A stretch of 32,298 nucleotides of DNA from Candidatus Nomurabacteria bacterium RIFCSPHIGHO2_01_FULL_39_10 (lineage in GTDB: Bacteria; Patescibacteriota; Minisyncoccia; Phycocordibacterales; UBA9973). Every line of letters starts with the position of its first letter. Position 1 is the stretch's first letter. The stretch covers positions 13,263 to 45,560 of the forward strand of contig MFTJ01000009.1 in NCBI GenBank assembly GCA_001786805.1, written 5' to 3'. A model generated the notes under the pieces. That model did not search any database, had not been told where the DNA came from, and saw only the letters and a list, made by a program, of their open reading frames with translations. Positions 4,530 to 32,298 of this stretch are shown piece by piece. The position numbers were made by a program, and so were the translations under genes.

Positions 4530-5505
4530 TACTTACGATATTGACGATATCATCAACCTTCGCTCCGCGGGATAAATCACTAATTGGTTTTTTTAATCCC
4601 TGCAAGATGGGACCGAGCGTTTGTGTTCCCGGAGATAGACAGGTCACGAGCTTGTAGGCGATGTTTGCCGCGTCAAGCGAAGGGAAAATTAATACATTCG
4701 CTCTGCCGCCGATTAAATTTCCCGGCGCCTTCCGCTCCGAAATAGATTTGACAAGCGCTACATCCGCTTGAATTTCGCCGTCAATAATTAGCTTCGGTCT
4801 CCGAGCGCGTACCAATTCAAGAGCCTCTTTAACAATGGCGATTGACTGACCACTGCCTCCCGAACCCTTCGTGCTGTACGAAAGAAGGGCGACTCTGGAT
4901 TCGTCCCCGACAATATGAGAACGCGCGTCCGAAGCCGCAATGGCAATGTCTGCGAGTTGTTCTGAAGTTGGTTGTGGCACAACGGCGCAATCAGAAAAAG
5001 TCAGAATCTCTTCATTATCTCCGCGAAAAGCCGGGACAATCATATAAAATGAACTTGAGACTGTCTGTATTTCAGGAGCTTTTCCGACTAGCCAAAGTCC
5101 TGCTCGCAAAACGTCCGCGCTCGGGCATCCTGCTCCGGCAACTAACCCATCACCTTCTCCTTCGCGCAATAAGTACATACCGTACATCAATGGATGGCGC
5201 GCAAGGCTGCGCGCCATCTCCGGAGTCAATTCATCCTTTGTACCGAGCTTTGACGACCGCAGTTCAATGAGTAATTTAGCAAGAGCATCTGCTCGCTTCT
5301 CCTCTATCTCAACATATTCAAAACCAAGCGATTTAATCTTTGTAGCATCCTCTTTGCTACAAACAAAAATAGGCGCAGCAATTTTTTCTTTCACGAGGAT
5401 TTTTGCGGCTTCAAGCACTCTCTCATCTTCTGATTCCGGAAGAATTACTTTTCGTATATATCCTTCGGTAGCGCGGGTGCGAAGATTTTGAAGAAAAGTA
5501 TTCAT
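4498..5505 (-). CDS. pta: phosphate acetyltransferase
   Basis: The 335-aa PTA_PTB-type protein carries the blocks [36 protein letters not shown] and [14 protein letters not shown]. It is adjacent to and overlaps xfp. Confidence 0.88.
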
Positions 5506-10321: not shown

Positions 10322-10353
10322 ACACCCTTACAAACTCCAGTTTGTAAGGGTGT
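10322..10353 (-). terminator. perfect 14-bp stem / 4-nt loop hairpin directly after the ArsR-type gene stop; terminator and/or operator
   Basis: ACACCCTTACAAAC-TCCA-GTTTGTAAGGGTGT lies 4 nt from the stop at 10358. No U-tract follows on the minus strand, so an intrinsic-terminator role is uncertain. It is homologous to the palindrome at 10659-10690. Confidence 0.4.
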
Positions 10354-10868: not shown

Positions 10869-11939
10869 CTATTTTTTGCCGAGAATTTTTACCAGCGCAA
10901 GTTCTAGCGGCAGTTCGGAGATGAAGGCATTATCTATGTTTTGATAGGCTTCAAGAAGGATGGCGAGCGCGGGAGAGCGGAGCATTCCTGCGGTGTCGGC
11001 TTTAACTAAGCCTTGCAGAAATTCTAAATCAGCTTCTGATAAATCCCCTGCCATGGATTCTTTTAATTTTGGCGCGTAGCGCAAGATTATTGCCATGCGG
11101 AATTTAGTGACTATTAGTTTCAGATACAATTTCATATCCAGATTTTCTTCGGATGCTTTACGAACAGCAGAAATTCCTTTCTCTATATTTTTTTCGGCGA
11201 TGGCGGAAATAAAATCATTCACCAAAATTGTTTTCGGCGCGCCGGTGATTTTTTCTACATCTTCTCTAGTGATTTTTTTAGACTTCTCCCCAACCCTCCC
11301 CTTACTAAGGGGAGGGTGAAAGAAGTTCAAAACTTTTTGCAGTTCACCCAGCGCGTCGCGGAATGAACCATCAGCCAAAATGGCCAGAAGTTCCGCCGAA
11401 CCGCCGTCTAAATCAAAACCTTCTTCCTTGGCGACGTCAATCAGCATTTTTCGGCAGACTGCGTCGGAAGCTTTTTTAAATGTGAAAACTTGGCAGCGGG
11501 AAATTATTGTTTCTGGAACTTTTTGCAGCTCGGTCGTAGCTAAAATAAAGATGACATGCTTCGGCGGCTCTTCAAGAGTTTTTAAGAGCGCTCCCCAAGC
11601 GTCCTTTGAAAGCATATGCACTTCGTCTATTATGTATGTTTTAAACTTAGAGTCGAACGGTAGAACTCTCACTGCCTCTCGCAACTCTTTTATATTTTCA
11701 ATTCCTCTGTTTGACGCGGCATCTATCTCATACATGTCGTTTGCCGATACGCCGATACTGGCGGCGAAAATACGCGCCACAGAAGTCTTGCCTGTCCCCC
11801 GCGAGCCGACAAAAAGGTAAGCGTGGGAGACTTTATTTGTCTTTACAGAACTCTCCAAAACATCCACAATATGGTCCTGTCCCAAGACTTCCTTGAATGT
11901 TTTCGGGCGGTATTTTCTATATAATGCTAAATCGTGCAT
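10869..11939 (-). CDS. dnaX: DNA polymerase III gamma/tau subunit, short form (356 aa)
   Basis: AAA+ clamp-loader motifs are present: HAYLFVGSRGTGKTS (Walker A), IIDEVHML (Walker B) and SRCQ (sensor). There are no tau C-terminal domains, and a tRNA follows the stop. Confidence 0.9.
   Translation of the reverse strand: MHDLALYRKYRPKTFKEVLGQDHIVDVLESSVKTNKVSHAYLFVGSRGTGKTSVARIFAASIGVSANDMYEIDAASNRGIENIKELREAVRVLPFDSKFKTYIIDEVHMLSKDAWGALLKTLEEPPKHVIFILATTELQKVPETIISRCQVFTFKKASDAVCRKMLIDVAKEEGFDLDGGSAELLAILADGSFRDALGELQKVLNFFHPPLSKGRVGEKSKKITREDVEKITGAPKTILVNDFISAIAEKNIEKGISAVRKASEENLDMKLYLKLIVTKFRMAIILRYAPKLKESMAGDLSEADLEFLQGLVKADTAGMLRSPALAILLEAYQNIDNAFISELPLELALVKILGKK
11286..11318. repeat. 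family-A GC-rich hairpin repeat, in frame inside dnaX
   Basis: CTCCCCAACCCTCCCCTTACTAAGGGGAGGGTG contains 11-bp perfect arms (11294-11304 / 11306-11316). It is translated as HPPLSKGRVGE. Confidence 0.8.
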
Positions 11940-11978: not shown

Positions 11979-13013
11979 TTATAAAGCAATAAATTCTCTA
12001 ACAATTTCTTCTACTTGGCTAGCGTTTTCTGTTTCCATTAATTTCATTCGTAACTCTTTTGCTCCATCAAAGCCGTTCACATACGCTTTGTAATGCTTTT
12101 TCATTGTGGCAAAATTCTTTCCGCCGGCTGGCGGACCACCGAGCATTTTTTCAAAAAGCTTTGTGTGTTCTACCATGACTTCCAGTTTGTGTTTTACCCC
12201 CTCTCCTTTATAAGGAGAGGGCTGGGGTGAGGTGTGTTTAGCGAATAGCCAAGGATTCCCAAAAATTGCTCTGCCCAGCATCACTCCATCGCAGCCAGTT
12301 TCAAGACACTTCCTCCTTGCGTCGTCAGTGCTTACAATATCTCCATTTCCTAAAATTAAAGTATCTACCCCCATCTCATCGCGAATTTCCACAATTCTTT
12401 TCATTAAGTCCCAATGGGCAGGTACATCAGACATTTCTTTTCGAGTGCGTAAATGGACGGTAAGAGCCGCTAAATTTTCTCCAAGTAAAGTTTTTATCCA
12501 CTCTTCATCTAATAAATAATTTTCATTTTTACTTGCCCGTCCGAAGCTTTTGGGCGTAGGTGGGTTGTATCCAATACGAGTTTTCACCGAAATAGGCAAT
12601 CCGCCTCCGCTTTCTATCGCTGCTCGAATCACTTCTCGTGCCAGTTTTGGATTTTTTATCATTGCCGCGCCGGAGCATTGTTTTTCTACCGCCTTGTCCG
12701 GACAGCCCATATTTATATCTATGCCATCGAAACCAAACTCACGGCAGAGGGCGGATGCTGTCCTAATATTTTCTACATTTGAACCGAATACTTGCGCCAC
12801 TATCGGTCTTTCGTTTTCGCCGTACTTGAGGTCAATTAAAAGTTTCTCTCGCGCTATAGAATGAGCAAGTCCATCGGCAGACACAAATTCCGTCCAAAAA
12901 ATATCCGGTTTTCCATATTTTGCGATGATTTGCCGAAAAGCGCAGTCGGTGACATCAGCCATCGGCGCCAGACAGAGAATTGGTTTTTTAAGTTTTTGCC
13001 AAAAGTTTTTCAT
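11979..13013 (-). CDS. dus: tRNA-dihydrouridine synthase
   Basis: LAPMADVTDCAFRQI, GFDGIDINMGCP and TVHLRTR are Dus family blocks. Confidence 0.88.
   Translation of the reverse strand: MKNFWQKLKKPILCLAPMADVTDCAFRQIIAKYGKPDIFWTEFVSADGLAHSIAREKLLIDLKYGENERPIVAQVFGSNVENIRTASALCREFGFDGIDINMGCPDKAVEKQCSGAAMIKNPKLAREVIRAAIESGGGLPISVKTRIGYNPPTPKSFGRASKNENYLLDEEWIKTLLGENLAALTVHLRTRKEMSDVPAHWDLMKRIVEIRDEMGVDTLILGNGDIVSTDDARRKCLETGCDGVMLGRAIFGNPWLFAKHTSPQPSPYKGEGVKHKLEVMVEHTKLFEKMLGGPPAGGKNFATMKKHYKAYVNGFDGAKELRMKLMETENASQVEEIVREFIAL
12120..12135. repeat. family-C 16-nt near-palindrome, in frame inside dus (encodes PPAGG)
   Basis: The plus strand reads TCCGCCGGCTGGCGGA. Its reverse complement TCCGCCAGCCGGCGGA matches the miaA copy at 23481-23496 at 15 of 16 positions. 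Confidence 0.7.
12197..12234. repeat. family-A GC-rich hairpin repeat, in frame inside dus
   Basis: The minus strand reads CACCTCACCCCAGCCCTCTCCTTATAAAGGAGAGGGGG, nearly identical to the copy at 27612-27650. It has a 10-bp stem and is translated as TSPQPSPYKGEGV. Confidence 0.85.
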
Positions 13014-13018
13014 AATTC

Positions 13019-13112
13019 AAGACAAGACGCAAAGAATTTCTTGAAACTGCGCCCTCGAAGTCTTAAGGACAGGGGACCCACACGTTTCTTAAAATTCTTT
13101 GCGTCTTGTCTT
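13019..13112. repeat. 21-bp perfect inverted repeat with 52-nt spacer, filling the ftsQ-dus intergenic region
   Basis: AAGACAAGACGCAAAGAATTT (13019-13039) pairs with AAATTCTTTGCGTCTTGTCTT (13092-13112). There is extra GAAAC/GTTTC pairing inside. The repeat starts 5 nt from the dus ATG and ends 2 nt from the ftsQ-like stop. Confidence 0.85.
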
Positions 13113-15308: not shown

Positions 15309-15364
15309 AACCTCACCCTAGCCCTCTCCTTGTCAAGGAGAGGGTGCCAAAGGCGGGTGAGGTG
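15309..15364. repeat. family-A repeat, full-length nested-hairpin copy (intergenic, serS/dprA divergent region)
   Basis: AACCTCACCC-TAG-CCCTCTCCTT-GTC-AAGGAGAGGG-TGCCAAAGGC-GGGTGAGGTG. The outer arms are CCTCACCC/GGGTGAGG and the inner arms are a 10-bp perfect stem. Confidence 0.85.
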
Positions 15365-16274: not shown

Positions 16275-18548
16275 ATGAAATTATTAATTGTTGAGTCGCC
16301 GTCAAAAGCAAAGACTATAGAGAAGTATTTGGAAGGCGTTTTCACTGTGCGCGCTTCTGTCGGCCACATCCGCGATTTGCCGAAATCAAACAAGACAGCG
16401 ATTGATATAGACGCGGGTTTTGTTCCTCATTACGAAATTTCCAAAGGCAAGGAAAAAATCGTACACGAGTTACAGGGTTTGGCAGAGAAAGCTAGCGAAA
16501 TAGTGCTTGCGACCGACCCTGACCGCGAAGGAGAAGCAATCGCGTGGCATATAGAAACACTTCTTAAACAGGACAAAAAGGTGAAAGCGCCTATTGAGCG
16601 AGTGATTTTTCATGAAATCACAAAAGAAGCGGTAGAAGAAGCATTAAAGAATCCACGTAAAATTGATACAGCTCTGCGCAAGGCGCAGGAAGCGCGAAGA
16701 GTCTTGGATAGATTGGTTGGCTACGACCTCTCCGGATTAATTTGGAAAAAAGTGCGATATGGGCTTTCGGCAGGGCGCGTGCAATCCCCTGCGCTTCGGA
16801 TAATTATGGAACGCGAGCGAGAAATTCGCGCTTTTGTGCCAGAAAAGTATTGGAGGATTTTTGGACTTTTTGAGACTCCCAAAAAAGCAAAACTGACTCT
16901 GGAATGTTCCGAAGAGCCTCGTGATGAAAAGTTGGTGGAAAAGATAATGACGGAGGGTAGAAAAGGAACTTGGATAGTAAGCGGAGTAAAAGAATCAGAA
17001 CAAAAACGTGCTCCTCGCGCGCCGTTTACCACTTCCACACTGCAACAGACGGCAAGTTCTCGTCTTGGCTATTCCCCTTCCCGCACTATGCAAATCGCGC
17101 AAAAGCTTTACGAAGCCGGACACATTACTTATATGCGAACAGACAGCACAAATTTAGGAACCGCCGCCCAAGGGCAAATTTTATCGTTCATAGAAAAAAA
17201 ATACGGAAAAGAATATGCCGAAGGGAGAATTTACAAAACCAAATCAAAAAACGCGCAGGAAGCGCACGAAGCTATTCGCCCAACACATGTAGAACATATG
17301 ATTGTAGGCAGTGGCGAAGGAGAAAGACTTTACAGATTAATTTGGGAGAGGGCTGTTTCTTCACAAATGACTGACGCGAAGTTGCTAAAAACAAAAATTA
17401 CAGCAAAAATTACTTCAGCGGTTGAACCGCTGGGTATACCCAGCGGTTCAACCGCTGATTCTTTGCCGGATTTTTTCGCCAACGGCTCCCGCTTGCTTTT
17501 CCCCGGCTGGCTCAAAGTGGACAACGATGCTATAAGCGACGACGTGGAACTGCCTTTATGCAAAGAGGGCGAAGAATTAAAACTGCTTGATTTGCAGAAT
17601 GAAGAAAAATTTACTCTTCCACCGGACAGATATAGTGAAGCGGGACTTATTAAAGAACTGGAAGCGCGGGGTATCGGCAGACCTTCCACTTATGCTTCCA
17701 CCATGCGGACGATTGAAGAACGGGGATATGTGAATAAAGAAGGCAAAACATTGTTCCCTACTGATGTCGGCGAAGTCGTGTCAGATTTTCTAGAGAAGCA
17801 TTTTATGAATTATATTTCCGATAGTTTTACGGCAGAAATGGAAGATGAACTTGATGAAATTTCCCGGGGCGAACGGGATTATGAAAAAACTCTGAAAGAT
17901 TTTTATGAGCCGTTTTTAAAAGATGTAAAATCTAAAGAAAAATTAGAAAAGGCTACCAATTTGGGCGAAGCGCCGGAAGATATAAAATGTCCGAAATGCG
18001 GAAGTTCCATGATTATCAAACTCTCTCGCGGAGGTAAATTTTATTCCTGCTCAAAATATCCGGATTGCGACGGAGCTTTGATGCTTGATGGTATGGAACT
18101 CAAAGGTCCGAAAGAAACCGGTGAAATGTGCCCTGAATGCGGCGTTGATAAAAAAGGCTTGCCCCGCGAAGCTTCAGCGAAGTGGGGCGGAGAGCTGGTA
18201 GTCCGCGAACGCCGAGACGGCACAGGCACATTTATTTCCTGTTCCCGTTACCCTAAATGTAAATTCATAAAAAGCGATGAAGCGGATGAGGCAAAAAAGA
18301 GGACCGGTATACTCTGCCCTATTTGTAAAACAGGAGATATTAGTGAGCGTCGCGGAAGATTCGGAATTTTTTATTCTTGTTCCAACTACCCAAAATGCAA
18401 ATTTGCCATCAAGGCAAAGCCAACAGGGAATATCTGTAAAGAATGCGGAAGTTTGATGATGGAAGGCACAAAAACCATTCCCGAACGTTGTTCCAGTAAG
18501 GCTTGCAAAATGCATAACCCGCACAAGATATCAAAAATTGAAGCATAA
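16275..18548 (+). CDS. topA: DNA topoisomerase I with C-terminal zinc ribbons
   Basis: TOPRIM (MKLLIVESPSKAKTIEKYL, ATDPDREGEAIAWH), an active-site region (ITYMRTDS) and four CxxC...CxxC zinc-ribbon repeats. The dprA-topA adjacency is widely conserved. Confidence 0.95.
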   Translation: MKLLIVESPSKAKTIEKYLEGVFTVRASVGHIRDLPKSNKTAIDIDAGFVPHYEISKGKEKIVHELQGLAEKASEIVLATDPDREGEAIAWHIETLLKQDKKVKAPIERVIFHEITKEAVEEALKNPRKIDTALRKAQEARRVLDRLVGYDLSGLIWKKVRYGLSAGRVQSPALRIIMEREREIRAFVPEKYWRIFGLFETPKKAKLTLECSEEPRDEKLVEKIMTEGRKGTWIVSGVKESEQKRAPRAPFTTSTLQQTASSRLGYSPSRTMQIAQKLYEAGHITYMRTDSTNLGTAAQGQILSFIEKKYGKEYAEGRIYKTKSKNAQEAHEAIRPTHVEHMIVGSGEGERLYRLIWERAVSSQMTDAKLLKTKITAKITSAVEPLGIPSGSTADSLPDFFANGSRLLFPGWLKVDNDAISDDVELPLCKEGEELKLLDLQNEEKFTLPPDRYSEAGLIKELEARGIGRPSTYASTMRTIEERGYVNKEGKTLFPTDVGEVVSDFLEKHFMNYISDSFTAEMEDELDEISRGERDYEKTLKDFYEPFLKDVKSKEKLEKATNLGEAPEDIKCPKCGSSMIIKLSRGGKFYSCSKYPDCDGALMLDGMELKGPKETGEMCPECGVDKKGLPREASAKWGGELVVRERRDGTGTFISCSRYPKCKFIKSDEADEAKKRTGILCPICKTGDISERRGRFGIFYSCSNYPKCKFAIKAKPTGNICKECGSLMMEGTKTIPERCSSKACKMHNPHKISKIEA
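17415..17458. repeat. perfect 44-bp palindrome in frame inside topA (two inverted 17-nt hairpin units)
   Basis: TCAGCGGTTGAACCGCTGGGTA|TACCCAGCGGTTCAACCGCTGA. Each half contains its own hairpin, CAGCGGTT-N-AACCGCTG. It is translated as SAVEPLGIPSGSTA on both strands (compare the antisense track ORF 17330..17689). Confidence 0.95.
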
Positions 18549-20044: not shown

Positions 20045-21070
20045 CTAGACGCTAAAATTAGAAATATTATATAAATCAGTGTCGTCTTGTTTAACTTCTT
20101 CTTTTGACCTATCGTCTATGGGTATATCATTCTCTACTGGTTCTCCAGAGGTTGAACCGCTGAGAGTTTCTTCAGATAGCGCTTTAGGCGCTATCTCGGT
20201 TTGCGCTATATGTTTTTCCATCATTTCATCCGGTTTTTTCTCCACAGTTGATTTATTTATGGAATCCAAAATGGCTCGGAGGTCTTCGGTGGAAAAATAA
20301 TCAATTTTAATCTGTCCGCCGAGTTCTTTCCGGTCTATATGCACTCTCGTACCCAGCTTTTCCTGAAATTCTTCTTCCAATTCTGTTATCTCAGGGTCTG
20401 GCATAAATTCTTTCTTGCGTACCCGATCATAAGCTATCTTTCTCGCCAATCGTTCCGCTTCGCGGACAGTGATTTTTTTGTAAACAATCTCTTTAAACAA
20501 CACGAGCTGCTCTTCGGGATGATCCGTAAGCATGAGGAGTGGTCGTGTGTGGCCGTCGGTGATTTTTCCCTCTGATAGTCCAGTAATAATTTCTTCTGGC
20601 AAAGTCAGAATTCGTAGTGAGTTAGAGACATACTCTCGGCTCTTGCCCATTTTCTTTGCGACTTCATTGTGAGTGAATTTAAATTCATTTACTAGACGGA
20701 AAAATGCCCGCGCGCGGTCTACGACATTCAAATCCTCGCGCTGCAGGTTTTCAATAATCGCCAGTTCCAGCTTCATAATAGCGGTATCGCCGGTGCGAAT
20801 GATAACCGGCACTTGCGAAACTCCGGCTTTAATGGCGGCGCGCAGTCTGCGTTCTCCGGCGATGAGTTCATATTCAGTCACGATGCCACCGTCATCTTTG
20901 GTTAACTCCACGCGGGAAACTGTAAGCGGCTGAAGCACCCCGTATTGTTTTATAGAGTCGGCTAAATCCGCGAGGCGCGTTTCGTCAAAGTCTCGCCTTG
21001 GCTGATACGGGTTCGGCTTGATTTTATTGGTATCAATCCAAAAAATTGAATTTGAATAAATGTTGGACAT
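20045..21070 (-). CDS. parB: ParB/Spo0J-family partition protein with acidic C-terminal extension
   Basis: ParB box (LQPLTV...GERRLRAA), an HTH (THNEVAKKMGKSREYVSNSLRIL), and about 60 extra acidic or low-complexity residues at the C-terminus. Confidence 0.88.
   Translation of the reverse strand: MSNIYSNSIFWIDTNKIKPNPYQPRRDFDETRLADLADSIKQYGVLQPLTVSRVELTKDDGGIVTEYELIAGERRLRAAIKAGVSQVPVIIRTGDTAIMKLELAIIENLQREDLNVVDRARAFFRLVNEFKFTHNEVAKKMGKSREYVSNSLRILTLPEEIITGLSEGKITDGHTRPLLMLTDHPEEQLVLFKEIVYKKITVREAERLARKIAYDRVRKKEFMPDPEITELEEEFQEKLGTRVHIDRKELGGQIKIDYFSTEDLRAILDSINKSTVEKKPDEMMEKHIAQTEIAPKALSEETLSGSTSGEPVENDIPIDDRSKEEVKQDDTDLYNISNFSV
20146..20162. repeat. single 17-nt unit of the topA palindrome family, in frame in the parB tail
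   Basis: The minus strand reads CAGCGGTTCAACCTCTG, matching the topA unit CAGCGGTTCAACCGCTG at 16 of 17 positions. It is translated as SGSTSG. Confidence 0.6.
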
Positions 21071-21282: not shown

Positions 21283-21300
21283 TATCTCATATATGAGATA
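21283..21300. promoter_or_regulatory. perfect 18-bp AT-rich palindrome overlapping the first ATG of the HTH-MurA ORF; candidate operator
   Basis: TATCTCATA|TATGAGATA covers the ATG at 21293. A second in-frame ATG lies at 21311. Confidence 0.35.
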
Positions 21301-22840
21301 TACTGTTTATATGATAAAACAAGTAAAAGAAACCGAACAAGAGAAGATAGGATTTTTTATAAAGGAATTACGGGAACACCGAGGCATGACTCAGGAAGAG
21401 TTTGCTAAAGCGCTTGGTACTTCCCAGAGTTCTGTTCCCCGTATGGAAAAGGGCGAACAGAATTTTACAACCGAACTGCTCCTGAAAATCAGCGATGTTC
21501 TTAACCACAAGATAGTTTCGGTGAATGATTCCATTGATTTTCAAGTTAATGGCGGAAAAAAACTAAGCGGAACTATCAAAACAAATTTCTCAAAGAATGG
21601 TTCCGTCGGGCTTCTTTGCGCTTCGCTCTTAAATAGCGGGACGACGACGCTTCATGGTATCGCCCGGATAGAAGAAGTGTATAGAGTGATAGAAATTTTA
21701 GAAAGCATAGGAGTAATAGTAAAATGGCTGAGCCAGAATACAGTGCAAATTATGCCGCCGGAAAAGTTTACACTAGATAAAATAAATATTGTTTCGGCGA
21801 TTAAAACTCGCTCAATAATTATGCTGGCGGGTCCACTCATACACAAATTATCTTCTTTCTCTATCCCCCACGCTTATGGCTGTAATTTGGGCAAAAGAAC
21901 AATATCGGCGCACACTTACGCGCTTGAAGAAGTAGGCATAAAAATAAAAACAACAAACAAGAGTTACGAAGTTAGCGCAAAAAAATTAAAGTCAGCAAAA
22001 AATATAGTGATGTATGAGACAGGAGAAACTGCTTGTGAAAATATTCTGTTTGCCGCCACTTTGATTCCGGGCGAAACCACCATCAGCTTCATGAGCAACA
22101 ATTATATGGTGCAGGAAATCTGTTTCTTCTTGGAAGCATTAGGCGTGAAAATAGACGGCATAGGCACTTCCACCTTGACTGTGCACGGAGTTGAAGAAAT
22201 AAATAAAGATGTGGAGTATTCAAATAGTGAGGACCCGATAGAATCCATGATGTTTATTTCTGCCGGAATCGTGACTGATTCGCATATCACTATCACCCGA
22301 GCGCCAATAGACTTTCTTTCTCTAGAGATGGAAAAACTGAAAAGGATGGGTCTGAAATATAAAATTTCTAAAATTTATTGTTCATATAATGGCAGAACGA
22401 AGCTGGCTGACATAGAAATTTTCCCGAGCAGATTAAAAGCTTTACAGGATAAAATACACGCAAATATATATCCGGGAATAAATATAGATAACCTTCCTTT
22501 CTTTGTGCCGATTGCTATAAAAGCAAAAGGTCAGACGATGATTCACGATTGGTATTATGAAAACCGCGCTATATATTTGACAGAATTAAACCGTCTAGGA
22601 GCGGAAATCACTCTAGCCGACCCGCATCGGCTCTATATTCAGGGCGGTACTCCGCTCAAGCCCGCGCAGGTCGTCTGCCCGCCCGCCCTGCGTCCTTCGA
22701 TGGTGATACTCATTTCCATGCTGGGAGCAAGCGGTACCTCTATTCTACGCAATGTGTATATGATAAACCGCGGATATGAAGAAATTGCAGAGCGCTTAAA
22801 CTCTATCGGCGCGGATATTAAAATAATAAAGGGAAACTAA
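21293..22840 (+). CDS. murA: XRE-family HTH domain fused to a MurA-like UDP-GlcNAc 1-carboxyvinyltransferase domain
   Basis: The N-terminal ~70 aa are FIKELREHRGMTQEEFAKALGTSQSSVPRMEKGEQNFTTELLLKISDVL (XRE/Cro HTH). The remainder aligns by eye to MurA, with Lys22 (FSKNG), Arg91 (KTRS), Cys115-Arg120 (YGCNLGKRT), Asp305 (NIDN), Arg371 (ENRA), Arg397 (ALRPS) and the terminal NRGYE..I..L..GA block retained. The likely start is 21311. Confidence 0.8.
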   Translation: MRYTVYMIKQVKETEQEKIGFFIKELREHRGMTQEEFAKALGTSQSSVPRMEKGEQNFTTELLLKISDVLNHKIVSVNDSIDFQVNGGKKLSGTIKTNFSKNGSVGLLCASLLNSGTTTLHGIARIEEVYRVIEILESIGVIVKWLSQNTVQIMPPEKFTLDKINIVSAIKTRSIIMLAGPLIHKLSSFSIPHAYGCNLGKRTISAHTYALEEVGIKIKTTNKSYEVSAKKLKSAKNIVMYETGETACENILFAATLIPGETTISFMSNNYMVQEICFFLEALGVKIDGIGTSTLTVHGVEEINKDVEYSNSEDPIESMMFISAGIVTDSHITITRAPIDFLSLEMEKLKRMGLKYKISKIYCSYNGRTKLADIEIFPSRLKALQDKIHANIYPGINIDNLPFFVPIAIKAKGQTMIHDWYYENRAIYLTELNRLGAEITLADPHRLYIQGGTPLKPAQVVCPPALRPSMVILISMLGASGTSILRNVYMINRGYEEIAERLNSIGADIKIIKGN

Positions 22841-23706
22841 TGTCAAAGAGACACTTTGACAAGCCTAAAGTTATCGTAATTATGGGGCAGACTGCTACGG
22901 GTAAAAGCGCGCTGGCTGTAAAAATTGCCAAAAAAATTGGCGGAGAAATAATTTCGGCTGATTCAAGGCAGGTTTATAAGGGGCTTGATATCGGTACTGG
23001 AAAAATATTTACAAAAGAGATGAAGGGAATTTCCCATTATTTAATTGATATAGAAAGTCCAAAAAATAAATTTACGGCGGCTCAATTTAAAGAACTCGCT
23101 GAAGAAAAAATTAAAGAAATAATAGCTCGCGGTAAAACTCCAATCATCTGCGGAGGCACGGGATTTTATATTGATGCTATAACTAAAGGCGTTGTCTTCC
23201 CAGAAGTTCCGCCAAACTATCCACTTCGCAAGAAATTAGCATTAGCAAACGACCGCGCACTAATGCTGAAACTCAAAAAAATTGACCCCGAACGCGCAAA
23301 AAACATAGACCCAAAAAACAAAGTGAGGCTTATTCGCGCGATTGAGATAGCGAAAGCTTTAGGTAAAGTCCCCCACTTGGCGGTTAAACCGCCAAGTTAT
23401 AAATTTATTAAGATAGGCCTCTATTTGCCCGCCGAAAAGCTCAAAAAGAAAGTAGCAAAAAGAGTGAAAAAAATGTTTAATCCGCCAGCTGGCGGAGGCT
23501 TGCTGGATGAAATCAAAAAATTAAAAAAATCTGGTGTGTCAGACAAAAGACTAAAAGAACTGGGTTTTGAATACTACAAACCTACGCAAGAAAAAGTGAT
23601 TAATGGAACCATGCAATATGCCAAGCGGCAAATGACGTGGTTCAAGCGCGACAAAGAAATAAAATGGCTTAATGCGTCAAAAATTACAAAGGATTACCCT
23701 CTGTAA
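22840..23706 (+). CDS. miaA: tRNA dimethylallyltransferase
   Basis: P-loop GQTATGKSALAV followed by IISADSRQVYKGLDIGTGK. The start overlaps the murA-like stop (TAATG). Confidence 0.92.
   Translation: MSKRHFDKPKVIVIMGQTATGKSALAVKIAKKIGGEIISADSRQVYKGLDIGTGKIFTKEMKGISHYLIDIESPKNKFTAAQFKELAEEKIKEIIARGKTPIICGGTGFYIDAITKGVVFPEVPPNYPLRKKLALANDRALMLKLKKIDPERAKNIDPKNKVRLIRAIEIAKALGKVPHLAVKPPSYKFIKIGLYLPAEKLKKKVAKRVKKMFNPPAGGGLLDEIKKLKKSGVSDKRLKELGFEYYKPTQEKVINGTMQYAKRQMTWFKRDKEIKWLNASKITKDYPL
23375..23397. repeat. perfect 23-bp palindrome in frame inside miaA
   Basis: ACTTGGCGGTT-A-AACCGCCAAGT shares the core GCGGTTNAACCGC with the topA/parB units. It is translated as HLAVKPPS. Confidence 0.85.
23481..23496. 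repeat. family-C perfect 16-bp palindrome in frame inside miaA (encodes PPAGG)
   Basis: TCCGCCAGCTGGCGGA matches the dus copy at 15 of 16 positions, and both are read as CCG CCA GCN GGC GGA. Confidence 0.8.
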
Positions 23707-27113: not shown

Positions 27114-27184
27114 CGGGCCCACGAGGGCTCGAACCTCGGTCTTTCCTTTTGGAGAGGAAAATTCTACCACTGAACTATGGACCC
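27114..27184 (-). tRNA. tRNA-Trp (anticodon CCA)
   Basis: The reverse complement is GGGTCCA-TA-GTTC..GAAT-T-TTCCT-CTCCAAA-AGGAA-AGAC-CGAGG-TTCGAGC-CCTCG-TGGGCCC-G, 71 nt in total. It lies downstream of rpmG, as in many bacteria. Confidence 0.9.
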
Positions 27185-27221: not shown

Positions 27222-27269
27222 TAAAAAGAGTTGCCCCCACAACAATTGTTCAGATTGTCGTGGGGGCAA
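27222..27269 (-). terminator. rho-independent terminator downstream of rpmG
   Basis: The minus strand reads TTGCCCCCACGACAATCTGAACAATTGTTGTGGGGGCAA followed by CTCTTTTTAT. The stem is GC-rich, about 14-16 bp with one mismatch, and is followed by a T-tract. Confidence 0.65.
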
Positions 27270-27409
27270 GTGTTCATCTTCCTCCTCTTCTTTTTCCTCC
27301 CACAAAACTGATAACCACTCGTGTAGGAGGACTAATACAATGACCACCGAAAGAACAACAATAATTTTCATATCGTTTTTATTTTAACACGTATTATGTT
27401 TAGATTTTC

Positions 27410-27611: not shown

Positions 27612-27650
27612 CACCTCACCCCGACCCTCTCCTTATTAAGGAGAGGGGGA
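27612..27650. repeat. family-A GC-rich hairpin repeat (intergenic, just downstream of alr)
   Basis: CACCTCACCCCGACCCTCTCCTTATTAAGGAGAGGGGGA has 11-bp perfect arms. It starts 6 nt after the alr stop on the minus strand. Confidence 0.85.
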
Positions 27651-28816: not shown

Positions 28817-31234
28817 TCAGTATCCTTTATTTTTAATCAGCAATTCTAAAAACTTCGTTGGAAATAAAGGGTGTGGTTCCGCTAATGCCTGATGGAAAAT
28901 GACTGTTGAGGGTGTAAGTCCGGGAAGAGTGTTTATTTCAATAACTTTAATGCTGCCGGTTTTGACGTGAGCGAAGATGTCAATTCTGGCGTATCCGCTA
29001 ATTCCAACTTTTTTCGCAACCGTTTCAACTAAACTTTTCACACGTTGAAGATTTTTTTTAGAAATAATTTCGCTCGGAGGCGGAGTAATGTTTACACCCG
29101 TGCCTCCCTGAAATTTCTCTTCCACGCTCAAGATGGTCATTTCTGCAACAGTAATGGAGGGAGAAAGGGCCTTTATGCGTCCATTTTCTTCTACAACACC
29201 AACAGTCATTTCCACATATCCGCTTTTCGGAGTATAGGAAATATTTCCTTCTCTGGCTTTTAATTTATCTGTTTCTATAAATGACTCAAAAATAATGTCC
29301 TGCAGGCGCCCTTCAGGCATATCAATAGCGTTTATCTGGGCTGTAAAAGTGTGGGGCTCGGCTGTGAGAATTCTATTTTTAATCAAAGAAATATAGGTGG
29401 ATAAATCTTTTTTATTAAAAAGTCTCACCACTCCCGCAGAACATCCGTCGCCCCGGGGTTTGGCGATGATTGTTTTTGTGCTGAGTCTTTCCCTTAACAT
29501 TCTCCAATGGGCATCTGTCAGGTCGTTATCTATATTTTGGGGAACATCTTTTATTTTAAACAAAACATGCTGGGCCACGCTCACCCCCTTTATCTTAGCT
29601 TTTGCTATTTCTTCATTAGTTTCCCATTTATCCATACATAATTTAGAAGTGATGCTGCACGACCCGTTGAATTTTATTTTTCTTTCTTCCAATATTTTTT
29701 GCAAAGTTCCGTTTTCGCCTATTCCGCCATGTAAAGCTAAAAAAATAAAAGGGTATTTTTGTAAGATCTGGCTGAAAGAATGTTTTTTGGGGATAAAAAA
29801 ATTTTCGGTTGTGTCATTATTACTCAAACGCAGTTTTATTCTTGTCTTTTCTATTAGGAAAAAAAGCCTTGCTATATCTTTTTGGGCATTCCGGGCGTTT
29901 TCCACTATCTCTTCTACTGTGTGATTAAGAGTATATGTATAGGGAAGCTCCCAAACGACTCCTTTTTTGTCCAGCAAATAAGGAAAAGGCTTGTAAATCT
30001 TTGAGCCCCGCAATTTAAGCCAAACATTTGTGCCGCTCATAAGCGAAACTTGTTTCTCGGCCGTTTGTCCACCAAAAAGCACCGCCACCGGCTTGCGTTT
30101 TAGGTCAATATCTTTACTGATAAAAACATTTTCAACTAAGCTGGATATGCCGCGGTTTCTGCAGGCATTATTGATAATATAGCGAAAAAAATCTTGGTGG
30201 GAAAAACCAATTCTGGAACTTTGTTGAAACAAAAAACTATTTTGCTCCATGCCAGAAATCGGATTAAAATCCGAAAACCAGATATTTCCGTCAGGCAGTA
30301 AAAAACCGTCAAAACGCGCAAAATCCCGCATTCCGAAGATGGAAAACAACTGTTCCGCTTCTATCTGAATTTTTTCAATGATTTGGTTGCTGAATCTGGG
30401 AGGACAGTAATAAGACACTTGGCGGGTGGGTAAATATTTCTTGCGAAAATCGAAAAATTGATTTTTACTGTACTCCACCTCTATCTCTGTAGGCAGTATC
30501 GCAACTGGAATATTTAGCTTGTTTGCGAGCATAATGACAGTAAATTCCTGGCCTTCCATGAAAGGTTCAATCACTATGCGAGTGTCTATGCGCCGGCTGA
30601 AAAGATTTTTCACGCTTTTTACTGCGCCTTCTATGCTGTTTACAGAAAATACGCCAATGCTAGAACCTCCTGAGGCCGGCTTCACGATCGCGCGGGTGAT
30701 AGACTCATTTTTCCAGAATTCTTTTACTTTACGAATAACTTCCTTGTTTGTATCCGTAATTTTGACAACAATGGAATTAGGCGTATAGAACCCCAGCTTG
30801 CGGATATGGACGTTCGCTTTACATTTGTCAAAAGCCATCTTGCATGATTTTGCGGAAGAACCGATAAAAGGAATTTTATTTTTCTCCAGAAAACTTTGTA
30901 TTTCTCCATCCTCGCCGAAACTGCCGTGGATGCAGGGAAAAACTATTGTGACCTTTTTTAAAATAGCCGCCAACTTGGAATTAGAAAGTTCTTTGGCGGA
31001 TTTATTCAATTTAAAATCAAAATCGCTTGGAGTGTTTGAATAAAGCTGCGCAGTTGATATTTTGTAAGGTTTTTTCTTTTCGTTAAAATAAATAGGAATA
31101 ATATCCACGCCCTGACTGCCCAAATGGTCAAGCACACTGCGAGCGGAATTCAAGGATATTCCTCGCTCAAGCGATGGTCCGCCGCAAAGTATCGCCACAC
31201 TAATTTTTTTCTTTAGTTCGTTTTTTTTACGCAT
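28817..31234 (-). CDS. ddl: tandem (double) D-alanine--D-alanine ligase-family ATP-grasp protein
   Basis: There are two complete Ddl-like modules. Module 1 has ISVAILCGGPSLERGISLNSA, HGSFGEDGEIQSFLE and SDFNPISGM. Module 2 has VAVLFGGQTAEKQVSLMSG, HGGIGENGTLQKILE and VIEINTLPGLT. The start is set at ATG 31234 (MRKKNELKKK). The track ORF extends to 31327 through an implausible leader. Confidence 0.85.
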   Translation of the reverse strand: MRKKNELKKKISVAILCGGPSLERGISLNSARSVLDHLGSQGVDIIPIYFNEKKKPYKISTAQLYSNTPSDFDFKLNKSAKELSNSKLAAILKKVTIVFPCIHGSFGEDGEIQSFLEKNKIPFIGSSAKSCKMAFDKCKANVHIRKLGFYTPNSIVVKITDTNKEVIRKVKEFWKNESITRAIVKPASGGSSIGVFSVNSIEGAVKSVKNLFSRRIDTRIVIEPFMEGQEFTVIMLANKLNIPVAILPTEIEVEYSKNQFFDFRKKYLPTRQVSYYCPPRFSNQIIEKIQIEAEQLFSIFGMRDFARFDGFLLPDGNIWFSDFNPISGMEQNSFLFQQSSRIGFSHQDFFRYIINNACRNRGISSLVENVFISKDIDLKRKPVAVLFGGQTAEKQVSLMSGTNVWLKLRGSKIYKPFPYLLDKKGVVWELPYTYTLNHTVEEIVENARNAQKDIARLFFLIEKTRIKLRLSNNDTTENFFIPKKHSFSQILQKYPFIFLALHGGIGENGTLQKILEERKIKFNGSCSITSKLCMDKWETNEEIAKAKIKGVSVAQHVLFKIKDVPQNIDNDLTDAHWRMLRERLSTKTIIAKPRGDGCSAGVVRLFNKKDLSTYISLIKNRILTAEPHTFTAQINAIDMPEGRLQDIIFESFIETDKLKAREGNISYTPKSGYVEMTVGVVEENGRIKALSPSITVAEMTILSVEEKFQGGTGVNITPPPSEIISKKNLQRVKSLVETVAKKVGISGYARIDIFAHVKTGSIKVIEINTLPGLTPSTVIFHQALAEPHPLFPTKFLELLIKNKGY

Positions 31235-31331
31235 TTTTACAAAAAATAGTTTTCTAATTACCCTTAATATATAAGAATAGAAAGAAAAAGTCCAAGAAAA
31301 CTGTGGATAACTTGGCTCTCTTTGCAAAAAT

Positions 31332-32100: not shown

Positions 32101-32212
32101 TTAAAACAATTTCACCACATCATGAAATGTAACGACAACCATCAGTAATATCAAAATGCTAAAACCGATCATATTGACGGTATTAGCAAATTTTGGGTTC
32201 AGACGCGAGCCT
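32101..32212 (-). other. 3' fragment of an ORF ending in a transmembrane helix, truncated upstream by the fold-back
   Basis: The minus-strand frame reads ...GSRLNPKFANTVNMIGFSILILLMVVVTFHDVVKLF*, with the stop at 32103-32101. Upstream the frame runs into the inverted copy and hits stops. Confidence 0.4.
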
Positions 32213-32298
32213 AAAATTTGCTAATACCGTCAATATGATCGGTTTTAGCATTTTGATATTACTGATGGTTGTCGTTACATTTCATGATGTGGTGAAAT
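32109..32298. repeat. terminal fold-back: two perfect 86-bp inverted arms around an 18-nt centre, ending exactly at the window end
   Basis: 32109-32194 is the exact reverse complement of 32213-32298. The centre 32195-32212 (GGGTTCAGACGCGAGCCT) is not palindromic. Confidence 0.95.

Follow-up and report, generated by a model that had tools for sequence, protein, structure and literature searches.

Described palindromic repeats and the topA element

The closest described counterparts of the element analyzed here are the REP/REPIN-RAYT systems or 'REPtrons' of E. coli, Pseudomonas, and Stenotrophomonas, namely short GC-rich hairpin units of the repetitive extragenic palindromic (REP) type, often occurring as inverted doublets (REPINs), together with a gene for a Y1/HUH enzyme, the REP-associated tyrosine transposase (RAYT), which is flanked by its cognate hairpins, with several such transposase/hairpin pairs per genome. 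Our subject is a perfect 44-bp palindrome in topA, the DNA topoisomerase I gene of Candidatus Nomurabacteria bacterium RIFCSPHIGHO2_01_FULL_39_10 (contig MFTJ01000009.1), a member of the Patescibacteria or candidate phyla radiation (CPR); the whole 32,298-nt stretch analyzed is termed the window, and L- and P-numbers are labels for compared loci and TopA proteins, respectively. We consider it likely that this palindrome is a non-autonomous REP/REPIN-type doublet (CAGCGGTT-S-AACCGCTG), cognate to a RAYT-like Y1/HUH family widespread in Patescibacteria, that selection has retained in a loop and a reading frame able to tolerate it. The REPtron features enumerated above recur in the CPR, and structurally the CPR protein is matched best by the E. 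coli TnpA-REP (4ER8). Unlike REPs and REPINs, the CPR units are shorter (17–25 nt) and usually perfect, with spacers of 0–8 nt yielding one 43–48-nt perfect palindrome, and their copies are without a consistent GTAG tag and lie largely in frame inside genes. The CPR transposase, unlike RAYTs, is ~220 aa long, falls below the NCBIfam cut-off, and has its own hairpin in frame at two conserved positions.

Intragenic REP singlets and dimers that are translated in frame as 20–30 aa, many of them in replication and repair genes, have been described previously, with related species sometimes having different REPs at an identical position of one gene, and with the Rickettsia palindromic elements (RPEs) RPE-4 and RPE-6 tied to one REP class (Di Nocera et al., 2013, PMC3733652). 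Those cases come from Proteobacteria, Opitutus, and Rickettsia, Patescibacteria not being covered, and are the exception in each genome, whereas in-gene copies look like the rule in the CPR, with topA, atpD, atpG, holB, parB, and miaA all affected within 42 kb. These 42 kb, comprising the window and 10 kb past its right end (L408–L410, three assemblies), are the sequence of this genome that was covered. RPE-1 is an imperfect palindrome of ~100–150 bp with its own sequence families, and we know of no dedicated transposase for it. The earlier note on this DNA, made from the sequence alone, took the topA palindrome for a CPR counterpart of the RPEs. This was essentially right as to a selfish palindromic repeat tolerated in frame at a surface site of an essential protein and kept in the open reading frame (ORF); however, the element is not an RPE homolog but of the REP/REPIN type with a RAYT-like partner. 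It differs from RPEs in being 44 nt long, perfect, and provided with a candidate transposase, and the likeness, compared by description, is functional only; homology to RPE families is unlikely given its length and the host phylum.

The IS200/IS605 insertion sequences (ISs) and their cargo-less derivatives (PATEs) share with this system the transposase superfamily, subterminal hairpins recognized on single-stranded DNA, and the absence of target duplications. Unlike them, the topA element has no gene, and the CPR transposase genes resemble single resident genes with simple hairpins on their flanks; ISs, by contrast, are multi-copy and have left and right ends that differ. A further parallel is offered by the coding palindromes of Nematomorpha mitochondria. 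These, too, are perfect inverted repeats within essential genes that are translated; they come and go dynamically, and the perfect identity of their arms suggests active homogenization (PMC6649704). However, those palindromes reach 284 bp, both of their arms encode conserved protein, and they form no dispersed families and have no known transposase (PMC6649704). Finally, a 2026 survey of 118,019 genomes found the highest inverted-repeat density in CPR phyla and left it unexplained (PMC13155455). Our literature search recovered no link of RAYT/REPIN systems or RPEs with Patescibacteria. REP dimers inside genes had thus been reported from other phyla, and what sets the present case apart is a divergent transposase branch, short perfect fused units, no GTAG tag, and a mainly in-frame location in essential genes.

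The palindrome and its candidate transposase partner

The sequence at 17415–17458 (TCAGCGGTTGAACCGCTGGGTA|TACCCAGCGGTTCAACCGCTGA) is identical to its own reverse complement, and the account of it as a perfect 44-bp palindrome made of two inverted 17-nt units in frame in topA was confirmed. Its components are as follows:

16275..18548, + strand: topA, DNA topoisomerase I, 757 aa, with Toprim and Topoisom_bac domains and three Zn ribbons
17415..17458, unstranded: REPIN-like doublet of two inverted REP-type hairpins, in frame in topA, aa 381–395, SAVEPLGIPSGSTA-D
17416..17432, unstranded: unit 1, CAGCGGTT-G-AACCGCTG, read as A-V-E-P-L
17433..17440, unstranded: palindromic 8-nt spacer GGTATACC between unit 1 and unit 2
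17441..17457, unstranded: unit 2, CAGCGGTT-C-AACCGCTG, read as S-G-S-T-A

The palindrome begins on a topA codon boundary, giving the product SAVEPLGIPSGSTA(D) at residues 381–395, and the spacer GGTATACC sets a 25-nt period, so that unit 2 falls in the other of the two tolerated frames (see below). The unit in full is CAGCGGTTSAACCGCTG; its core GCGGTTNAACCGC occurs three times in the window (twice in topA and once in miaA). In a window of the same composition ~3.7e-9 such palindromes would be expected by chance, and none of 100 shuffles gave three or more matches to the unit. The GC fraction of the palindrome is 0.59 vs 0.44 for topA. It folds into a 20-bp stem (RNA –45.5 kcal/mol, z –10.2; DNA –29.7 kcal/mol, z –9.9), a single 17-nt unit forming an 8-bp stem. 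The observation that both strands encode the same peptide holds insofar as the antisense ORF at 17330–17689 contains it; however, this follows automatically from palindromy and frame and carries no biological weight, and the low-complexity translation of that ORF offers no evidence of a gene.

Could the palindrome be a chimeric fold-back generated by assembly or amplification? The same contig does end in a fold-back, a 92-nt inverted repeat with a 6-nt centre at 32109–32298. This one is a contig-end assembly artefact, because in three further assemblies of this genome the sequence continues beyond that point into an M50 peptidase gene. The topA palindrome, however, is contained in an independent ENA k141 assembly (L283, 100% identity across 3274 nt, 44-mer included) and in five near-identical TopA protein clusters from different projects (NCBI, JGI, ENA); it leaves the 757-aa essential protein in frame, and its sister doublets elsewhere in the genome are identical in three assemblies. 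With the independent assemblies in agreement, we reject an artefact as having next to no probability.

The exact unit is found both 5' and 3' of a ~220-aa gene in L203, L204, L284–L289, L127, L134, L155, and L184 (metagenome contigs and GTDB Nomurabacteria [L203, L204, L284–L289]), with copies ~19 nt before the start, inside the gene, and 2–10 nt after the stop. The hairpins that flank the RAYT-like genes of L203, L127, L288, and L284 have the very sequence of unit 1 in topA. The encoded protein matches Pfam Y1_Tnp with 33.3 bits (cut-off 23), and its homologs are named 'REP element-mobilizing transposase RayT' by JGI; the HUH histidines H81 and H83 and the tyrosine Y141 are invariant in 91 sequences. 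In a Foldseek search, its AlphaFold2 model (predicted local distance difference test [pLDDT] 84; predicted template-modelling score 0.83) retrieved as top match 4ER8_A (E 8e-6, probability 1.0, TM 0.61 on target), a structure of the E. coli RAYT in complex with a REP hairpin, followed by the IS608 and ISDra2 transposases (2A6M, 2XO6, and others). At least 552 tblastn-confirmed homologs are present in GTDB genomes, nearly all of them Patescibacteria. Cognate GC-rich hairpins lie in or beside the gene in 84 of 93 transposase loci, differing in sequence by lineage, with ACTTGG-xxxxx-loop-xxxxx-CCAAGT as a common form.

Palindromes inside other genes have counterparts among these hairpins. The TopA doublet of L035 is a doublet of the hairpin in L236, and its stem recurs at the RAYT locus of that L035 genome (L261); the TopA inserts of L016 and L063 match the hairpin of L213. 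Doublets also occur at RAYT loci themselves (L265, L264, and L278; those of L265 span 42–44 nt and have palindromic spacers), and some RAYT-proximal copies are followed by GTAG or GTAA (CCGCTGTAGG in L203 and L288). The length of a match matters in such comparisons: RAYT hairpins and housekeeping loci share 46 13-mers vs ~53 expected, which is the chance level, and hairpin matches are meaningful only from 15–17 nt upward. The topA element is a doublet of a transposase-associated hairpin.

The transposase genes (L203–L289) have their own cognate hairpins in frame at ~nt 180 and ~nt 450, the latter just after the conserved tyrosine, and a 5' copy directly abuts a TATAAT-like box, an arrangement that suggests autoregulation through hairpin binding. 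In L282 (546–4193), the genome's own unit ACTTGGACATCGGATGTCCAAGT occurs six times in 5.3 kb around a RAYT-like gene.

Coding sites, the TopA loop, and the origin of the doublet

Further copies of the motif are present in the window (parB, miaA), in the adjoining DNA of the same genome (atpD, atpG, holB), and in other Patescibacteria (parB, miaA, and a TrxB-like gene). The hairpin forms concerned are CAGCGGTTNAACCGCTG and ACTTGG...CCAAGT. The 42 kb contain four exact units (two each in topA and atpD), one near-exact unit (parB), and three with the same core (miaA and two in atpG); these sites outside topA, together with further palindromes, are:

20146..20162, unstranded: degenerate unit CAGAGGTTGAACCGCTG with 1 mismatch, in frame in the parB linker, 'LSGSTSG'
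20174..20196, unstranded: further palindrome AGATAGCGCTTTAGGCGCTATCT, assigned to no family, in frame in the parB linker
23374..23398, unstranded: CACTTGGCGGTTAAACCGCCAAGTT, in frame in miaA, 'HLAVKPPS', with the core CGGTT-N-AACCG in common with the unit
23481..23496, unstranded: TCCGCCAGCTGGCGGA, in frame in miaA, +4 aa vs orthologs
L409 3745–3787: atpD doublet CCCAGCGGTTGAACCGCTG-AAAAC-CAGCGGTTCAACCGCTGGG, in frame, encoding 'PAVEPLKTSGSTAG', near-identical to the topA doublet and of the same family
L409 3073–3118: atpG 46-nt doublet of the miaA-type unit, in frame
L409 8057–8100: holB 44-nt doublet, in frame
L409 7945–7969: holB 25-nt palindrome

All long doublets of this genome lie in genes, and the elements of atpG, atpD, and holB (43–46-nt doublets, perfect or near-perfect) have the same sequence in each of three assemblies. 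Compared with the solved Bacillus F1-beta (2QE7), the atpD doublet is an insertion of 10 aa. The central 23 nt of the first miaA site (ACTTGGCGGTTAAACCGCCAAGT) recur exactly in L266 as the hairpin 3' of its RAYT-like gene, and 13-mers of the RAYT-associated hairpin catalogue cover all of its 25 nt; the second miaA site (TCCGCCAGCTGGCGGA) is also the centre of a 48-nt TopA-loop palindrome in L015 and L048. In relatives, the parB linker has full units or doublets. The canonical parS TGTTTCACGTGAAACA has no match at up to three mismatches within the window.

Beyond this genome, topA-type doublets lie in parB of L202 and L141 and in the TrxB-like gene of L129, a parB-like doublet with A/T centres is found in L371, and single units occur in parB, miaA, and several large ORFs of other Patescibacteria. 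The doublet spacers differ, for example AAAAC in atpD, GAAAC in parB of L202, and AAAGCTTT in L265. Relatives have several unit loci per genome, and Patescibacteria supply at least 11 of the 80 listed genome matches to the 17-mer, the phylum being a tiny share of the collection. In low-GC DNA, 50 of the 92 distinct unit sites are inside ORFs of at least 200 codons, that is, extragenic copies do not predominate. The frames of these 50 sites are strongly skewed, with 19 reading AV(E/K/Q)PL, 28 SG(S/L)TA, and three QR(L/F)NR (P = 4e-6): inside genes, two of three reading frames survive. At the centre base, stop avoidance in a perfect doublet of this spacing allows G/C or A/T centre pairs only, and both were found. 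Two of the loci deserve separate mention: in L058, three copies of GCGGAAGTCSGACTTCCGC (at 12258, 12888, and 13607) lie within 1.4 kb downstream of topA; and at the first miaA site, most orthologs have a hairpin whose arms co-vary at constant length.

Among 120 close TopA homologs the modal loop is ITAVIEGHEDLPEF, and a homologous non-palindromic segment at this site is not present in the orthologs. The nearest relatives (P0006, P0007, and L001), whose whole-protein identity is 88–89% (for P0007, 92.6% once the loop is left out), have the loop ITAVIKDH(K/E)(E/D)LPDF without the insert. The prediction that about 15 aa would be precisely absent from orthologs thus held as to absence but not as to precision: the net gain of the loop over the nearest relatives is 12 aa (+36 nt), and original loop codons were replaced, rather than 44 nt being cleanly inserted. 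As 44 is not divisible by 3, excising exactly the element would shift the conserved C-terminal half out of frame; hence, judging from the sequence, the insert must be translated through.

The AlphaFold model of TopA is poor overall (mean pLDDT 61), but it has confident strands at 368–380 and 400–409, and the insert forms the coil 382–395 with pLDDT<50, the sole such coil between two confident strands. This site is in what we take to be domain D2 of E. coli TopA. There it aligns with the GAGD turn between two strands of the E. coli enzyme (4RUL). The model and this alignment bear out the reading of the segment as a surface-loop insertion and place it at a predicted beta-hairpin turn, a permissive loop of TopA.

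At least 20 unrelated inserts occupy this same loop, spread over 34 of 121 orthologs, and, with the loop disregarded, nearly all of the 34 have an 'empty' TopA as their closest relative; therefore, gains have been many and recent. The 12 aa of the topA copy were gained recently and are specific to this lineage. At the DNA level, the TopA-loop inserts in the GTDB loci examined are mostly perfect or near-perfect palindromes of 40–51 nt, each arm of which is itself a hairpin, with long palindromic inserts in L014, L015, L035, L048, L049, L056, L063, and L076. In 1.39 Mb of Nomurabacteria DNA there are 141 perfect hairpins with a stem of at least 11, vs seven after shuffling.

That the peptide SAVEPLGIPSGSTA was itself selected for TopA function, with the palindromy of the DNA being incidental, would accord with the use of only two of three frames in genes, by which the peptide matters at least negatively. 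However, the peptides at this site are unrelated between lineages, the segment is predicted to be disordered, the same peptide module appears in unrelated proteins, and the perfect 44-nt symmetry would be left unexplained; we therefore reject this as highly improbable.

A nucleic-acid function within topA, such as a supercoiling-sensitive cruciform, a site for gyrase or another protein, an attenuator or terminator, or an RNase III site tuning expression, is a quite unlikely explanation for the element. It could draw on the very stable stem (mRNA –45 kcal/mol), on the consensus scan in which 17415–17458 is terminator-like on both strands (20-bp stem, T-rich tails), on the recurrence of long palindromes at this loop in many lineages, including eight of the nine longest coding palindromes in the 1.39 Mb, and on E. 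coli REPs being gyrase targets according to reports cited in PMC3733652. However, the closest relatives are without the palindrome and most orthologs without any hairpin at the site, the sequences at the site show no relationship from one lineage to the next, atpD, parB, and the TrxB-like gene contain this same module, G.U-tolerant covariation is not seen, and there is no specific tie to topology. As a terminator, the palindrome would stand mid-gene in an essential ORF, with a weak tail (TTCTTTG). The element may affect topA expression incidentally, but that is not why it exists. Selection on RNA structure was likewise rejected as a candidate: the sense strands have 20 G.T vs 29 A.C mismatches and hence no G.T excess, in what is a weak test with the 2-mismatch class mostly background.

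A purely local mutational origin, by template switching (snap-back synthesis or quasi-palindrome 'perfecting') at a tolerant loop with no mobile element or transposase, appears unlikely. It fits the perfect symmetry with complementary G/C unit centres and a GGTA|TACC spacer, the single- and double-hairpin versions at the same TopA site (L004 vs L015, L016 vs L063), the resemblance of one arm to native coding sequence in L019 and L004, the miaA arms that change in concert at constant length, the messy replacement without target-site duplication, and the mismatch counts just given, which agree with a DNA- rather than an RNA-level constraint; the same mechanism has been proposed for the Nematomorpha palindromes (PMC6649704). 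What it leaves unexplained are the identical 17–25-nt units at many unrelated loci and genomes, and their systematic 5', 3', and internal placement at RAYT-like genes with lineage-specific covariation. Template switching probably contributes to doublet formation and arm homogenization, not to the origin of the unit.

Returning to the REPIN-type doublet as the preferred reading, we propose, by analogy to IS200/IS605 and RAYT biochemistry, that the transposase would recognize the folded hairpin on single-stranded DNA, and that it would cut and rejoin it, thereby spreading singlets and doublets through the genome. In genomes with almost no intergenic space, the survivors would mainly be in-frame copies in permissive surface loops, those tolerated being read as AVEPL or SGSTA, whose residues are small and flexible, and having a centre base that creates no stop. 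The perfect symmetry, the G vs C unit centres, and the GGTA|TACC spacer lead us to infer that inverted copying or template switching, acting on one unit plus 4 nt, either created the doublet or maintains the identity of its arms.

Several points weigh against this reading. First, the 42 kb of this genome contain no transposase gene, and the transposase link therefore rests on relatives, of which L291 is only ~76% identical in DNA. Second, the protein scores 28.4 bits against the curated NCBIfam RAYT model NF047646 (cut-off 80), and a profile search of PDB sequences with it gave no match, the link to solved structures coming from the fold comparison; it is for these two reasons a divergent branch, not a canonical RAYT. 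Third, no conserved GTAG/CGTC tag is found at the topA copy, nor at atpD and most ACTTGG-type copies. Fourth, the first miaA palindrome swaps eight codons for eight with no added length, and the filled and empty TopA of the closest such pair (P0024/P0075, 98% aa identity outside the loop) differ by a change from 21 nt to 63 nt that is no clean cut-and-paste and from which no target-site rule or target duplication can be read. Fifth, eight of the nine longest coding palindromes in the 1.39 Mb are at this one TopA loop, a concentration for which tolerance alone may be insufficient; targeted integration or an interaction with DNA topology might be involved. Lastly, to our knowledge, mobility of REPINs has never been directly observed in vivo, and movement of the present element is proposed by analogy.

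On a broader plane, we tentatively raise the possibility, to which we give less than even odds, that a divergent REPIN-RAYT system of Patescibacteria has exchanged its intergenic niche for coding sequence, with translated loop inserts (TopA, F1 beta and gamma, clamp-loader subunits, ParB, MiaA), rapid turnover at per-gene hotspots, and perhaps policing by transposase genes that have their own hairpins in frame and at promoters. Were this so, it would account for the top inverted-repeat density of CPR phyla, offering a testable explanation for that published statistic (PMC13155455), and would make the elements a driver of loop diversification in minimal proteomes. On the preferred reading of the topA element, 'extragenic' palindromic replicators can persist almost wholly within essential genes where spare DNA is absent. 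Such inserts lengthen and diversify CPR proteins, may confuse ortholog alignment and structure prediction, and flag hotspots where loops tolerate 10–60 extra residues; the hundreds of lineages, each with its own cognate stem, constitute a natural transposase/hairpin set for the study of Y1 hairpin recognition.

Family B and other features of the window

The earlier note had grouped the topA palindrome with related ones in parB, miaA, dus, and dnaX. Those of parB and miaA indeed have the same unit or core, but those of dus and dnaX belong to a different repeat family, which we term family B:

12199..12221, unstranded: family B repeat CCCTCTCCTT-NNN-AAGGAGAGGG with a conserved CCTCACCC flank, in frame in dus
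15322–15344 and 27625–27647: family B copies
11293–11317: family B variant, in frame in dnaX
L409 3387–3411: family B copy

Besides dus and dnaX (the variant), its settings include a position upstream of dprA and spacers, and it is also found in L004, L006, L032, L043, and L056. Family B is the same phenomenon as the topA unit in a different repeat family; none of the 93 transposase loci supplied a transposase partner for it. It also occurs in the TopA loop of other genomes, with the peptide 'SPSPxQGEGRGEV', and the repeat (CCTCACCC..C-CCCTCTCCTT-NNN-AAGGAGAGGG) holds a pair resembling Shine-Dalgarno and anti-Shine-Dalgarno sequences.

Comparison with L001–L080 places a separate insertion hotspot in each of dus (11979–13013), dnaX (10869–11939), parB (20045–21070), and miaA (22840–23706); the dus loop following FGNPWLF has from 0 to ~60 extra residues among relatives. 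Other repeats of the window are a 29-nt inverted repeat with a 36-nt spacer between dus and ftsQ (13019–13112), a perfect 15-bp hairpin after an ArsR-like gene (10322–10353), a hairpin at 27226–27274 beside a tRNA (27114–27184), and GATGGCGCGCAAGGCTGCGCGCCATC at 5193–5218, in frame in pta. An Rfam search of the window at gathering thresholds returned three tRNAs only. Two proteins have unusual architectures: MurA (21293–22840, EPSP_synthase fold) with an N-terminal Cro/C1-type helix-turn-helix domain, and an 836-aa protein (28817–31327), adjoining alanine racemase, that is a tandem double D-Ala-D-Ala ligase.

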